Part shown: in pieces, positions 3,570 through 30,347 of the stretch
Numbering within the stretch: the stretch's first letter is position 1
Layout of the letters: each line of letters opens with the position of its first letter
Virus genome (UHGV): UHGV-1790783
Direction: 5' to 3' (one strand)
Source: a virus
DNA length: 30,347 nt
Made by a program: the position numbers and the translations under genes
The notes under the pieces: model-generated
Database searches by the model: none
What the model was told of the DNA's origin: nothing
The model's input: only the letters and a program-made list of their open reading frames with translations

Positions 3570-4250
3570 ATGGATGTGAAAATTACGATTCTGCAGGTGG
3601 AAGTCGCGAACCTGCGTCCGAATCCCTGGAATACCAACTCCGTTGGGGCGCAAAACTTCGAAAAACTGAAAGGCTCTATCGAAAAATTGGGCTTTTTTAA
3701 GCCAATTCTGGCGCGGGAGTTGGACGGGGGCATTTTTGAGATCCTCGGTGGTGAACACCGCTGGCGTGCCGCGATGGAGCAGGGCATTTCAACGGTTCCC
3801 GTCATCTCCGTGGGCAAAATTAACGACCTGGTGGCCAAACAGATGTCCCTCGTCGACAACGAGCGCTACGGCGAAGACGATCAGGTCGCTTTGCAGCGCT
3901 TAATCGAAGAAATCCAGTCTGAAATCGACTACCGGTTGTCCGATATCGCCCCGTATGACGACGAAATGGCGGCAACACTCGCCAAAGCGTCCGTTATCGA
4001 TCTTGAAGCGCTGGAAGCGCTCTCCCGTGGCGATGACGAGCCGGTCGATGAGGACAAACGCGAGAAAACCGAGCGAGTCGGCGCTGAACACCAGACGATG
4101 CGCTTCAAGGTGACGTTTGATGCGTCAGATCGGGTCGCCGACACCATCAAAACCATCATCAAAGAGCAGGGAATCAATACCGGTAACGAAATGGAGAACG
4201 CCGGGGAAGCCCTGGTGTGGCTGGTCGACTACTACAAGGAGCGTATGTAA
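3570..4250 (+). CDS. ParB/sulfiredoxin-like nuclease-domain protein (paralogue 1)
   Basis: ORF track 226 aa. ParB N-terminal motif ILGGEHRWRAA preceded by LRPNPWN. Stop overlaps the next start (TAATG). Confidence 0.8.
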   Translation: MDVKITILQVEVANLRPNPWNTNSVGAQNFEKLKGSIEKLGFFKPILARELDGGIFEILGGEHRWRAAMEQGISTVPVISVGKINDLVAKQMSLVDNERYGEDDQVALQRLIEEIQSEIDYRLSDIAPYDDEMAATLAKASVIDLEALEALSRGDDEPVDEDKREKTERVGAEHQTMRFKVTFDASDRVADTIKTIIKEQGINTGNEMENAGEALVWLVDYYKERM

Positions 4251-27200: not shown

Positions 27201-28840
27201 CAACTGTAGATAGCAGTTTGGCCACCATTGAAGAGATGAAAAAAACCGTGGCTGAAGTCGAGCACTCCAGTGCCGAAGTGACGACAAACATTGAGGCATT
27301 GGCTAAAACAAACATCGATTTAGCTTTGCGTCAGGATGAAGACCAGCACAAACAGATGGTGAGCAATGCCAGGATCGCCACAACTCAGAAGGCTTTTGCA
27401 GATGATATGTCCGCAATGGCTACGAAAATGGAAGAGATTAGAGCTGAAATAAATGAGGATATCAGAGCTTCAATCACTGAAGAGACTACGGCTCGTGTAG
27501 ATGCGGATAATGCTATTGGAAGCAGAATCACCAAACTTGAATCAAAGATTAACGATGACATTTCTGCCGCAATTGTGAGTGAACAAGAGGCGCGAGCCAG
27601 TGCCGATGAAGCACTTTCAAAAGAAGTCCTATCGTTACAAGCCAAAGTTGAAGGCGATATTAGTGCCGCTATATCTGAAGAAAAAAACGCCCGAGCAACT
27701 GCCGACGAATCTTTGGCACAACAGATAACTACATTGAAGAGTCAAACGGGCAAGGATATTAAGGCGGCTGTAGCTGAAGAGACGAAAGCCAGAACTGATG
27801 CTGATTCCGCTTTGGCTTCTAATATCACTAATCTACAGGCTCAAACGAGCAAAGATATTCATGCTGCGATTACATCTGAAGCGACTACGCGTACAAGCGC
27901 CGACAATGCACTAAGTGGGAGAATTGACACCTTAAAAGCATCAGTAGATGGAAATACAGCAACAATTCAACAACAGGCCACAGCTATTGCTGATACGAAC
28001 AAGAAGGTATCAACAGCCTGGACGCTGAAAATGGAAACCTCCACCAGCGGAGGCCAAAAATATGTTGCCGGCATAGCGTTGGGCATCGACACAACAGGTC
28101 TATCGCAGTTTTTGGTGCAGGCAGATCGCTTTGGTTTGGTGAACTCCGTTAATGGGAAAATTACAACGCCATTCGTTATTGATGCCGGTGTGGCTTATAT
28201 GAACGGAGCTTATATCAAGAACGGCACCATTGATAACGCCAAAATAGGCAACTTCATTCAGTCCAACGATTACTCAAGCGGAATGACGGGGTGGCATATT
28301 AATAAAAACGGGAACTCAGAGTTTAACAATGTAACTGTTAGAGGCACCGTTTACGCAACGAATGGCAAATTCACAGGAGAAATACAGGCTACCAGCGGAA
28401 CATTCAGAGGCACGGTACAAGCAGATCACTTCGTAGGCGATGTCGCTAACATGTATGTGGGCAATGACTTCTCAGTTCGTAACAGCGGCACATATACAAT
28501 GACATATACAGACTCTTCTTCGTCTGCATTGCCCAAAAATATTTATGTGGCAATAAATGTATATACGGGGGGCGTCGGCCCTGTTGCAGCCCAATTTACC
28601 TGCAATGGAGTGACGAAGACCGCAGCCACTGGTAAGGGGGCTACATACAGAGACCCTGATCTTAATTCGACAAGTTCTACAGGCGTCGGTGGCACTCTTT
28701 ACGCTGCTTTTAACAATGTTACCTCAAGAACTGTTGCTGTTACGGTAAAAGTGACCAGTTCATCACAGACACATATTTATTCGCCCGTGATGCTAATCAG
28801 CCGTGGAAGTGGCGCATTTTCCATGTCGGGCATCAGTTAA
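24266..28840 (+). CDS. J: Central tail fibre / host specificity protein, lambda gpJ-like
   Basis: ATG at 24266 (SD AAGGA) within track ORF 24260..28840; ~1524 aa. Segments NYPNSALVGLKVNSEQFGS, FGCTSRGQAHRVGLWLL and the C-terminal FLVQADRFGL region match my recollection of lambda J. Contains tandem 33-aa repeats and a divergent C-terminal tip. Confidence 0.9.
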   Translation: MEQFKKKRLPLLIAGAGGKKSSSSSRTPVEADDTVNSRAMASILDLLGEGVIGGLVDGAKSIFIDDLPILNEDGSANYSGITWDFRDGSQDQTPMAGFDFVETPKSINIQLKKTHDVTVSIDNDEADRVRLILKFPSLRSVDKKSGDTNGTTVKYKFQIANGDGTFADVVAEGEKDVEIALTAKKTGVYYRSYELKLPKPGRAYKVRVIRLTDDSKTQYLYNDTWVDSIGEIVDTPMNYPNSALVGLKVNSEQFGSTMPSRSYLVRGIKIRVPSNYNEYTNTYVGVWDGTFKLLSSSNPAWILFDLLTNARYGLGQYVSESMIDLGQLYQIGRYCDEEVDDGFGGKEKRFAINTQITSRQDAYRLIQDIAGAFRGMVFWAGGMVNIMQDSPSDPVMMFTNSNVKDGLFTYKGSARKDRPSVALVTYNNKEDGYKQNIEYVEDQDAMRRYGERKTEVVAFGCTSRGQAHRVGLWLLYTARMESDVITFTAGLDASFLMPGETVLIQNKYRAGKRNSGRIVAFTKNSVTLDAPVSLAKGGCFIRILNQEGKIVERDVLETGENITKVTFSKALSSAETPVLNGVWTITEPDLEPMRVRIVNIAQGETSGSFDITAVENNPSKYEAIDNGATLIPQNTTVLDPTYSKPSNLQITEGTYLSSPGNLSVKLTATWEGKSPEYWISWRRSDANNVSNWQSARVTEEQYEIVNVAENGRYDFQLYAVSFNGKKTEIISTVYKVQGTMTPPDAPTALTAVGDYRNVILNWVNPDSIDLDHINVYASRTNNLDTAKLIAEAASTTFTHAGLGDSETWFYWVRAANKRGMLSQPNSNLGTEAMTKDVLSFLTGKITSSELGQELLEEIDTKASQEAVDAINKQMEESLKSLDDKFTETDQRIEEAQNVLRTEVSNTVSKVEEALKEVENSNAALIQLKETVSEQDKVVAGAVEAANAALDNSSALVAEEREARVEGDLANAKEIEAMKSTVDSSLATIEEMKKTVAEVEHSSAEVTTNIEALAKTNIDLALRQDEDQHKQMVSNARIATTQKAFADDMSAMATKMEEIRAEINEDIRASITEETTARVDADNAIGSRITKLESKINDDISAAIVSEQEARASADEALSKEVLSLQAKVEGDISAAISEEKNARATADESLAQQITTLKSQTGKDIKAAVAEETKARTDADSALASNITNLQAQTSKDIHAAITSEATTRTSADNALSGRIDTLKASVDGNTATIQQQATAIADTNKKVSTAWTLKMETSTSGGQKYVAGIALGIDTTGLSQFLVQADRFGLVNSVNGKITTPFVIDAGVAYMNGAYIKNGTIDNAKIGNFIQSNDYSSGMTGWHINKNGNSEFNNVTVRGTVYATNGKFTGEIQATSGTFRGTVQADHFVGDVANMYVGNDFSVRNSGTYTMTYTDSSSSALPKNIYVAINVYTGGVGPVAAQFTCNGVTKTAATGKGATYRDPDLNSTSSTGVGGTLYAAFNNVTSRTVAVTVKVTSSSQTHIYSPVMLISRGSGAFSMSGIS
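27458..27952 (+). repeat. Five tandem 99-bp (33-aa) coiled-coil-type repeats inside the J-like gene
   Basis: Seen in translation: DIRASITEETTARVDADNAIGSRITKLESKIND / DISAAIVSEQEARASADEALSKEVLSLQAKVEG / DISAAISEEKNARATADESLAQQITTLKSQTGK / DIKAAVAEETKARTDADSALASNITNLQAQTSK / DIHAAITSEATTRTSADNALSGRIDTLKASVDG. Nucleotide copies are diverged. Confidence 0.75.
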
Positions 28841-28975: not shown

Positions 28976-30347
28976 ATGTGGTACAGGGAAGGTACTGTTA
29001 CATTTACAAAAGGAAGCGACACAATATCAGGCATCGGAACACGTTGGAATTTGACCGAAAAAGGCGTGTTACCGGGCATGATTGTCATTGGTCCTGACAA
29101 TAAGTTGTATGAGGTCAAGCGCGTAACCAGTGATACGGTCATTGTCCTCTCAGAACCTTATACCGGCGAAACTCAATCTAAAGTTCCGTGCCGAATCATT
29201 ACGACCTATGAAGGCGACTTAACTCAGTTTAGTGCGCGCTTTACTGCACTAATGTCGCGTATGTCGGCTGATTCCAAGTCCATGCGCAGTTGGTTGACCG
29301 CTCTGGATGATGTGACAATCGAGCGTGAAGACGGTACAGAAGTGACCGTTAAGCCGCTAATGCAGATCGTCAACGAGCATAACGAAAACGTTGAGTGGTA
29401 TAAAAATAACACCGATGCGATTGAGGCCGCTGGAGACAAAGCTCGGGAGGCGGCGGCCAGTGCTGTCGCTGCGGCAGAAAGTGCCAACACTGCTGTAGAA
29501 AAAGCCTCTCAGGCATCTCAAAGTGCATCCGCTGCGGTATCTTCACAAAGTGCGGCGAGTGAGAGTGCAGCTGCTGCGGAAAAATCTGAAACAAACGCAG
29601 AAGCGGCAAAAGAAGCGGCAGCAAAATCAGCATCTGTGGCGTCGACTAAAGCATCGGAGGCAGCCACATCAGCGTCCAGTGCCTCTGCATCTAAGGATGC
29701 GGCTAAATTATCAGAGACTAACGCTTCATCGAGTGCAAACGCGGCAGCATCATCAGCTACAGAAGCTGCAAATTCATGTAAGGCAGCAAAAGCATCAGAG
29801 ACAAACGCAAAAGCGTCTGAAGCTGCTGCCGAACAGAGTGCATTGTCTGCAAACAGTTCTAAATCTGCGGCAGAAACGTCAGCGAGCGCGGCCTCAATAA
29901 GCGCGGATAGTGCTTCATCAAGTGCAACGTCGGCAGAAAAGTCTGCGGAAAGCGCTTCGTTATCTGCGGCAAATGCCACCGCTAAAGCGACAGAGGCGAC
30001 GGAACAGGCAACAGCTGCGGAAAAGTCAGCAGAGGCGGCAAAATCTTCTGAAACCAATGCAAAGACTTCAGAAGACAATGCCGCTGCTTCTAAGGAGACA
30101 GCAGCCGAATCTGCAAGCTCTGCCTCTGTTTCAGCTTCCTCGGCGTCATCTTCAAAAGATGAGGCCGCTCGCCAGGCGTCAGCGGCAGCAGAGAGTGCGA
30201 CAACGGCATCAACGAAGGCGACGGAAGCGGCAGACAGTGCGACGGCGGCTGCGCAGAGCAAAAATGCGGCAGAATCCGCGGCAACACGCTCTGAGACAGC
30301 GGCAAAACGGGCAGAGGATATTGCATCCGCCGTGGCGCTTGAGGATG
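28976..30347 (+). CDS. Side tail fibre protein (5' partial; runs off the window end), lambda Stf-like Ala/Ser-rich shaft
   Basis: ATG at 28976 with SD AAGGAG; open to the window end (no stop), so absent from the track as a complete ORF. Globular N-terminal ~150 aa followed by an A/S/E/K-rich region ending ...SKNAAESAATRSETAAKRAEDIASAVALED, closely matching my recollection of lambda Stf. Confidence 0.85.
   Translation, partial: MWYREGTVTFTKGSDTISGIGTRWNLTEKGVLPGMIVIGPDNKLYEVKRVTSDTVIVLSEPYTGETQSKVPCRIITTYEGDLTQFSARFTALMSRMSADSKSMRSWLTALDDVTIEREDGTEVTVKPLMQIVNEHNENVEWYKNNTDAIEAAGDKAREAAASAVAAAESANTAVEKASQASQSASAAVSSQSAASESAAAAEKSETNAEAAKEAAAKSASVASTKASEAATSASSASASKDAAKLSETNASSSANAAASSATEAANSCKAAKASETNAKASEAAAEQSALSANSSKSAAETSASAASISADSASSSATSAEKSAESASLSAANATAKATEATEQATAAEKSAEAAKSSETNAKTSEDNAAASKETAAESASSASVSASSASSSKDEAARQASAAAESATTASTKATEAADSATAAAQSKNAAESAATRSETAAKRAEDIASAVALED

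Follow-up and report, generated by a model that had tools for sequence, protein, structure and literature searches.

The J-like central tail fibre encoded by the virus genome UHGV-1790783 (a stretch of 30,347 nucleotides, hereafter 'the window') carries in its distal part five tandem units of 33 residues. On balance we think it probable that this array is the core of a metastable segment in the trimeric central fibre of an SSU5-like Escherichia coli phage-plasmid, one that switches its fold from a coiled coil to a β-prism. The array is probably a stored-energy spring and not a passive spacer, in which each unit would probably supply one β-hairpin and the five units ten strands. What we establish here is the repeats, their motif content, a predicted helicity, homology to the central fibres of F-type pyocins, and variation in copy number among relatives.

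An earlier note on this DNA had described five tandem units at this place, and the description is exact: nucleotides 27458-27952 are codons 1067-1231 of the J-like reading frame, and they fall in frame into five units, each of which starts with 'DI'. The units and the two elements that follow them directly are listed here by coordinates in the window, strand, and position in the protein in amino acids (aa):

27458-27556, + strand: unit 1, aa 1067-1099, DIRASITEETTARVDADNAIGSRITKLESKIND; predicted to make nine helical turns in the coil and one β-hairpin in the prism.
27557-27655, + strand: unit 2, aa 1100-1132, DISAAIVSEQEARASADEALSKEVLSLQAKVEG; missing in 4-unit relatives.
27656-27754, + strand: unit 3, aa 1133-1165, DISAAISEEKNARATADESLAQQITTLKSQTGK.
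27755-27853, + strand: unit 4, aa 1166-1198, DIKAAVAEETKARTDADSALASNITNLQAQTSK; its type occurs twice in 6-unit relatives and is expanded in those with 9-10 units.
27854-27952, + strand: unit 5, aa 1199-1231, DIHAAITSEATTRTSADNALSGRIDTLKASVDG; the conserved last unit in all relatives.
27953-28006, + strand: half-unit, aa 1232-1249, with one reverse motif, ATIQQQATAIA, at 1234-1244.
28007-28369, + strand: candidate β 'seed' strand VSTAWTLKMET (aa 1250-1260), then the tail-tip β domain PF09327 (Pfam; strands in an AlphaFold2 model).

The periodicity has firm statistical support. At lag 33 the BLOSUM62 score averages 2.18, compared with -0.36 ± 0.17 (z = 15) in 2000 composition-preserving shuffles; over lags 5-99 the best value reached in any shuffle was 0.73, and the observed peaks lie only at lags 33, 66 and 99. 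A profile built from any four units recovers the fifth at 32-37 bits (E ~1e-12 to 1e-13 in a single-sequence search). The consensus given in the earlier note also holds, in that all five units share D1, I2, A4, E9, R13, A16, D17 and L27. At the same time the copies are as diverged in their nucleotides as that note had claimed: any two units are 36-55% identical as protein and 40-64% as DNA, identity at third codon positions is close to random (21-36%, one pair excepted at 52%), and Tandem Repeats Finder (TRF) does not pick up the locus, the units being too far apart in sequence. The duplication is indeed old. The five units of phage SSU5 are colinear with those of the window, and each orthologous pair is 69-79% identical in DNA, more than any two units within the array (40-64%); the array therefore predates the split of the window and SSU5 lineages. 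The proposal that the array is a site of recombination finds little support within this genome, where no unit pair shares more than 10 identical consecutive bases. We also ruled out the array as a present-day slippage hotspot (longest exact between-unit match, 10 nucleotides; closest pair, 64% identical).

The framework for interpreting these units comes from a recent study of the F7 pyocin (He et al., bioRxiv, January 2026; PMC12874032). In that particle, the central fibre contains a trimeric coiled coil of 163 residues (921-1083); upon receptor binding this segment converts to a triangular β-prism, and the conversion opens the tail tip and sets the tape measure free. Substitution by Gln of small residues that are exposed in the helix, and that pack at the corners of the prism, abolishes killing and leaves assembly unaffected. 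Each prism strand bears the motif SxSxxMxxLxS, its direction alternating strand by strand, where S is a small residue, L is Leu, Ile or Val, and M is hydrophobic or charged, an acidic M often being paired with an Arg four residues away on either side. The same authors predicted that 21 of 24 related phage fibres can take both folds, and in their predictions a deep alignment yields β structure and a shallow one the coil (PMC12874032).

At the level of sequence, the units of the window fit this strand description exactly. Each unit holds two opposed copies of the motif, a reverse copy at positions 4-14 and a forward copy at positions 19-29. The reverse motif recurs at aa 1070, 1103, 1136, 1169, 1202 and 1234, and the forward motif at aa 1085, 1118, 1151, 1184, 1217 and 1250; altogether we count 15 matches, compared with 7.0 ± 2.4 in shuffles (p = 0.002). 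Among 265 distinct homologue units, the six S positions (4, 12, 14, 19, 21 and 29) are 96-100% Ala, Gly, Ser, Thr or Val, and none of the six belongs to the helical core. The L positions, 6 and 27, are 97-99% Leu, Ile, Val, Met or Phe. One of the two M positions is Glu9 (95%), paired with Arg13 at +4 (95%), and the other is Ile, Val or Leu (98%). Between the motifs, positions 15-18 and 30-3 abound in Asp, Gly, Asn, Ser and Thr.

The homology to pyocin fibres is direct. The solved structures in the Protein Data Bank (PDB) with sequence related to the array region are the F2 pyocin central fibre (25vf), T1 gp33 (9l9p) and DEV gp56 (9ze4). In a phmmer search of the PDB, the F2 fibre 25vf_A matches with E 1.9e-28, query aa 1136-1352 aligning with residues 970-1185; this alignment spans the last ~100 residues of the resolved coil (residues 907-1084) together with the tip domain, and the half-unit at aa 1232-1249 is the last stretch to align with the resolved coil (to ~residue 1085). 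Four properties of the class described by He et al. are found here: sequence homology to an F-type pyocin central fibre in its C-terminal ~400 residues (tested with F2); a long helical segment between the FNIII domains and a distal β domain (seen in an AlphaFold2 monomer and in the hydrophobic period); one SxSxxMxxLxS per prospective strand, in alternating orientation and with residue frequencies that match those published; and an acidic M residue with an Arg four residues away (Glu9/Arg13). The array also occupies the position of the pyocin switching segment, preceded by the FNIII domains and followed at once by the PF09327 β domain. In both the F7 and F2 fibres (PyoF10 and PA0641, respectively), as here, the domain order is J-like hub, FNIII, helical shaft and PF09327-type β domain, the strand motif alternates in the same manner with its acidic M and Arg at +4, and the patterned segment is of similar length (165 residues here, 163 in F7). 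The systems differ in several respects. The crisp 33-residue tandem units found here are far more degenerate in the aligned part of the F2 shaft; the helical insert is ~390 residues here and ~165-180 in pyocins; the J-like protein has its own C-terminal end of ~150 residues, whereas pyocins add separate PyoF11/F12 proteins; and we are dealing with a DNA-containing phage-plasmid, not a tailocin. We rejected entry 9ze4 as a model of the F7 pyocin after ejection: it is DEV gp56, fitted at 8.5 Å, and is uninformative on conformation.

The earlier note had called the array a segmented coiled coil. The part of this that stands is a predicted α-helix with a coiled-coil type of periodicity; an ordinary heptad register does not fit, and the strand motif had been overlooked. 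The hydrophobic period in the array is 3.66 residues, with a spectral power of 3.01 at period 3.67 compared with 0.06 at 3.50, so that a 33-residue unit amounts to three hendecads, or nine helical turns. Judged by its departure from a 3.5-residue period, the array is a hendecad coil and not a canonical heptad coiled coil. The helical core then consists of unit positions 2, 6, 9, 13, 16, 20, 24, 27 and 31, which places both Glu9 and Arg13 in the core. In the ~200 helical residues upstream, the hydrophobic period peaks at 3.54.

We ran AlphaFold2 (AF2) as a monomer on aa 1001-1420, with an 89-sequence alignment and from the single sequence. With the alignment, AF2 predicts a continuous helix for aa 1010-1219, with a pLDDT score (predicted local distance difference test) of ~90 or higher for aa 1040-1170, and directly after this helix the strands 1222-1229, 1232-1244 and 1250-1261; this is a monomer model in which the pLDDT at the junction is 59-78. 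From the single sequence the helix extends to aa 1252. Residues 1222-1252 are thus ambivalent, being strands with the alignment and helix without it, and the second half of unit 5 changes in the same way. It is for these residues only that the comparison of the two runs is informative, and there it goes in the same direction as in He et al., deep alignment giving β and shallow alignment coil. A Foldseek search of the AF2 model against the PDB matched lambda-type tip domains only (best, the open state of lambda J, 8xcj, E 6.8e-9).

From these observations, a working cycle can be proposed in which the trimeric coiled coil, the β-prism state and the trigger are all inferred from homology and motif content. 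In the resting virion, the insert of ~390 residues that joins the FNIII domains to the tail-tip β domain would be a three-stranded α-helical shaft, within which the repeat array would form a hendecad coil of nine turns per 33 residues with Glu9 and Arg13 buried. Each unit would also encode two antiparallel β-strands (positions 4-14 and 19-29) with Asp/Gly/Asn-rich turns between them. By analogy with F7, engagement of a receptor at the distal end may allow the pre-formed strands from aa 1250 to seed conversion of coil to prism. The product would be a triangular prism with one chain per face and one unit per hairpin, so that five and a half units would give ~eleven strands per chain. Standard geometry (a helix rise of 1.5 Å per residue and ~4.8 Å per strand, an estimate made independently of any model) suggests that a helix of ~25 nm would shorten to a prism of ~5 nm. 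Such a collapse may draw the tail tip closer to the cell and move the fibre out of the way, so that the tip opens for the exit of tape measure and DNA. The number of units, 4-10 in relatives, would set both the resting length of the fibre and the size of the stroke.

The strongest competitor to a spring is a passive shaft: a stable coiled coil of three strands whose only task is to give the central fibre its reach and perhaps to carry the side fibres. It would not refold, and copy number would match its length to how thick the host surface layers are. The high-confidence predicted helix and its coiled-coil-like periodicity are what such a shaft should have, copy number does range from 4 to 10 among relatives, and the coil of F-type pyocins is a docking site for side fibres, while here a Stf-like side-fibre gene follows J. 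We nevertheless regard it as unlikely. A plain coil offers no reason for six non-core positions to be 96-100% small, it leaves the Asp/Gly/Asn-rich stretches every 16-17 residues unaccounted for, and the homologous pyocin segment does refold, mutants blocked in refolding being assembled normally and yet dead (PMC12874032). The idea in the earlier note that repeat number sets fibre length proves incomplete: because six non-core positions are small, the Glu-Arg pair is buried, and the unit boundaries are Asp/Gly/Asn-rich, the strongest conservation in the array is left unexplained by a spacer. We give still less credence to a constitutive β structure, in which the array would already be a β-prism or β-helix in the mature virion and never a coiled coil. 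In its favour, 30% of homologous phage fibres came out as a prism in AlphaFold 3 (AF3) predictions (PMC12874032), the strand motif is perfectly periodic, and AF2 makes strands of the last 1.5 units when given the alignment. However, AF2 makes units 1-4 helical with a pLDDT near 90, the hydrophobic period of 3.66 suits a helix and not strands, and three independent cryo-electron microscopy studies show a coiled coil in resting F-type pyocins. As for a chance periodicity, a by-product of Ala/Glu/Thr-rich low-complexity sequence, the composition is certainly biased (Ala 19%, Ser plus Thr 22%, Asp plus Glu 18%). It is nonetheless excluded for practical purposes, since the low-complexity origin is refuted by the shuffles, which never came near the lag-33 score (z = 15), by the leave-one-out profiles, which recover all units, and by the orthologous units, which are colinear in relatives.

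The fold-switching interpretation itself has several points against it, which we have weighed in calling it probable and no stronger. The switch has been observed experimentally only in an F-type pyocin, and there is no structure of the J-like protein or of any SSU5-like virion. According to He et al., the tails of lambda and T5 work without this particular mechanism (PMC12874032). The AF2 monomer keeps units 1-4 helical even with the alignment, and the proposal assigns no role to the ~200 helical residues upstream. The array is a hendecad, whereas the F2 pyocin shaft is mostly heptad (F2 pyocin paper), and details of the two coils may accordingly differ. The 265 homologue units were collected with a profile of the window's own units, which biases them towards the consensus.

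Beyond the fold switch as such, we offer more tentatively the idea that the unit is the quantum of a modular spring, a hairpin and three hendecads in one, such that phages could tune stroke and energy by whole units. The spring module would then be common to siphovirus J-like fibres and to the T7-type and N4-like short fibres described below.

The comparison of repeat number across relatives that the earlier note had called for was made on full-length proteins from viral contigs and GenBank phages (a first protein search had given mostly fragments of <700 aa). In 68 related loci there are 4, 5, 6, 9 or 10 units by the tip domain, and these different counts sit on otherwise similar SSU5-like backbones. 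The 4-unit form is without unit 2; in the 6-unit form unit 4 is duplicated, with 69% DNA identity between the copies; and in the forms with 9-10 units it is unit-2-like and unit-4-like copies that are expanded. The first and last units are kept in every relative. Relatives with an equal, 5-unit array differ in total fibre length. The gene is also mosaic. It shares 80% DNA identity with Salmonella phage SSU5 over its first 3960 bases, and this similarity ends at gene position 3960 (~aa 1320), inside the tip domain; similarity to Cyrano and Klebsiella phage-plasmids ends at gene position ~2611 (~aa 870), at the start of the shaft. From these two breakpoints it follows that shaft and distal end behave as exchangeable modules.

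Turning to known systems, lambda J (PDB 8iyk and 8xcj) is homologous to the N-terminal 860 residues of the J-like protein (E 2.5e-134), the tail-tip β domain at query 1232-1419 corresponds to lambda 841-1027, and the gene order M-L-K-I-J-Stf is identical. Nothing in lambda J corresponds to aa 864-1231. Its alignment covers only query 22-863 and 1232-1419, and because it jumps from 863 to 1232, ~368 residues including the whole array constitute an insert relative to lambda. Lambda J has no match to the unit profile, and a sliding lag-33 score reaches 0.27 at best, in agreement with the earlier note's statement that it lacks such an array. Nor does lambda show the extensive switch, per He et al. 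(PMC12874032). With the exception-level NCBIfam model lambda_TipJ (NF049904), the J-like protein scores 563 bits, far below the cut-off of 1950. Alignment and profile score together indicate that it shares hub and tip domains with lambda J and yet is another type of protein.

Other parallels to the array are offered by T1 gp33 and other Drexlerviridae J-like proteins; T1 gp33 has tandem copies of the array unit, for example DDIQASLTDIREVIATETEALSREIDQLKAQIG. In T1 there are about three recognisable units, diverged from the consensus. The T1 paper describes the C-terminal 350 residues of gp33 as longer than in lambda and too flexible to resolve, presents only an AF3 'α/β-helix' model, and leaves a switch unmentioned. 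DEV gp56, the short fibre of an N4-like podovirus, has the array unit followed by a tip-type β domain; this fibre lies next to the tail tube, fitted at only 8.5 Å. DEV gp56 and T7-type fibres differ from the protein studied here in belonging to short tails and having no J-like hub.

The unit is also widespread. We searched the five-unit profile against 1.84 billion representative proteins (clusters at 50% identity) and obtained matches in 2343 clusters at E <= 1e-3, 1038 of them at E <= 1e-10. In the best 150 of the 2343 clusters there are 4-33 matched stretches per protein, and a re-scan of the same 150 gave 32 residues as the commonest unit spacing, followed by 36, 39 and 33. Two examples illustrate the range: a protein of 2850 aa with 26-29 units (P0121), and one in which 11 units are joined to a T7 tail-fibre N-terminal domain in a protein without J-type domains (P0148). 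Curated families are silent on this segment, as aa 864-1231 have no Pfam match at E <= 1 and no NCBIfam match at E <= 0.1; the array is matched only by uncharacterised PHROG tail-fibre families.

The remaining features of the J-like gene and its surroundings are as follows:

24260-28840, + strand: gene for the J-like central tail fibre / tip attachment protein, an open reading frame (ORF) of 1526 aa from the listed TTG.
26849-27457, + strand: upstream helical shaft, aa 864-1066; absent from lambda J, with a heptad-like period of 3.54 and without a clear 33-residue repeat.
27116-27214, + strand: isolated degenerate unit copy, aa 953-985, SSALVAEEREARVEGDLANAKEIEAMKSTV; unit-profile match at aa 955-984, 11.5 bits, independent E-value (i-E) 1.2e-5.
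28370-28837, + strand: variable C-terminal end, aa 1371-1526; differs from SSU5.
28976-30347, + strand: lambda-Stf-like side tail fibre gene, which runs off the end of the window.

The true start of J is probably the ATG at 24266, six bases 3' of the listed TTG; we favour it because the annotated genes of SSU5, PhiR41_1 and Cyrano begin at the equivalent position. The Pfam domains are FNIII-A_GpJ (103-237), Phage-tail_3 (359-522), fn3 (646-729) and Phage_Tail_Tip (1235-1370), and PHROG 31, 'central tail fiber J', also matches; in the PDB, the protein matches lambda J, as given above, and the F2 pyocin fibre (E 5.9e-163). The tail-tip β domain is common to the J-like protein and lambda J, and the C-terminal end beyond it is presumed to be the receptor-binding part. 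In the shaft upstream of the array, degenerate motif pairs occur at 956/971, 988/1003 and 1037/1052 (region aa 924-1066), and over aa 864-1066 the strand motif is weakly enriched (10 matches, 5.5 expected, p = 0.05). The degenerate unit copy at aa 953-985 is also kept in SSU5-like relatives. Residues 864-1066 are a candidate 'spine' and a possible docking region for side fibres. The side fibres of F-type pyocins attach to the shaft at an acidic kink; by eye, there are candidates for such a kink here, such as RQDEDQH near aa 1025. On the opposite strand, ORFs of 86-97 aa in the shaft and repeat region, at 27385-27645 and 27006-27315, are enclosed entirely by the J frame and most likely spurious.

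By its sequence, the window is placed with the SSU5-like phage-plasmids; the distal 2 kb is 100% identical to E. coli plasmids of ~106 kb, for example NZ_CP079773.1, in which its annotation is no more than 'phage tail protein'. Upstream of J (17133-24249, + strand), an ORF of 1528 aa (17133-21719) is followed by ORFs of 111, 244, 274 and 197 aa, which synteny suggests are tape measure, M, L, K and I, in SSU5 order. A literature search on the SSU5 J protein found nothing specific. From ~29500, the Stf-like gene contains a long Ala/Ser-rich tract with recurring 'SETNA' and 'KSAE' motifs and a lambda-like ending, '...AAKRAEDIASAVALED'; TRF reports a 21-bp period at 30038-30081 within it, and an opposite-strand ORF of 247 aa (29518-30261) is probably a shadow of this tract.

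It has long been asked where non-contractile tails find the energy to breach the cell envelope, and the answer offered by a fold switch rests so far on one pyocin. The explicit tandem-unit architecture and the natural copy-number series go beyond the published work; indeed, the word 'repeat' is absent from the text of the He et al. preprint (PMC12874032). If the fold-switching interpretation of the array is true, a switching segment can consist of discrete hairpin units that lend themselves to counting, and the natural series of 4, 5, 6, 9 and 10 units is suited to testing stroke length, stability or host range against unit number. SSU5-like phage-plasmids are common in E. coli of animal and human sources, the matching isolates in our plasmid search coming from ducks, chickens, pigs and humans; phage-plasmids as a class are described (PMC9600943) as often carrying resistance genes. 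The ~2300 profile-matched clusters, short-tailed phages included, may use the same device, and no curated family covers the unit. Should the more tentative idea of a modular spring also be true, the 4/5/6/9/10 series, together with the 20-30-unit arrays of metagenomic fibres, would reflect adaptation to envelopes or capsules of different depth.

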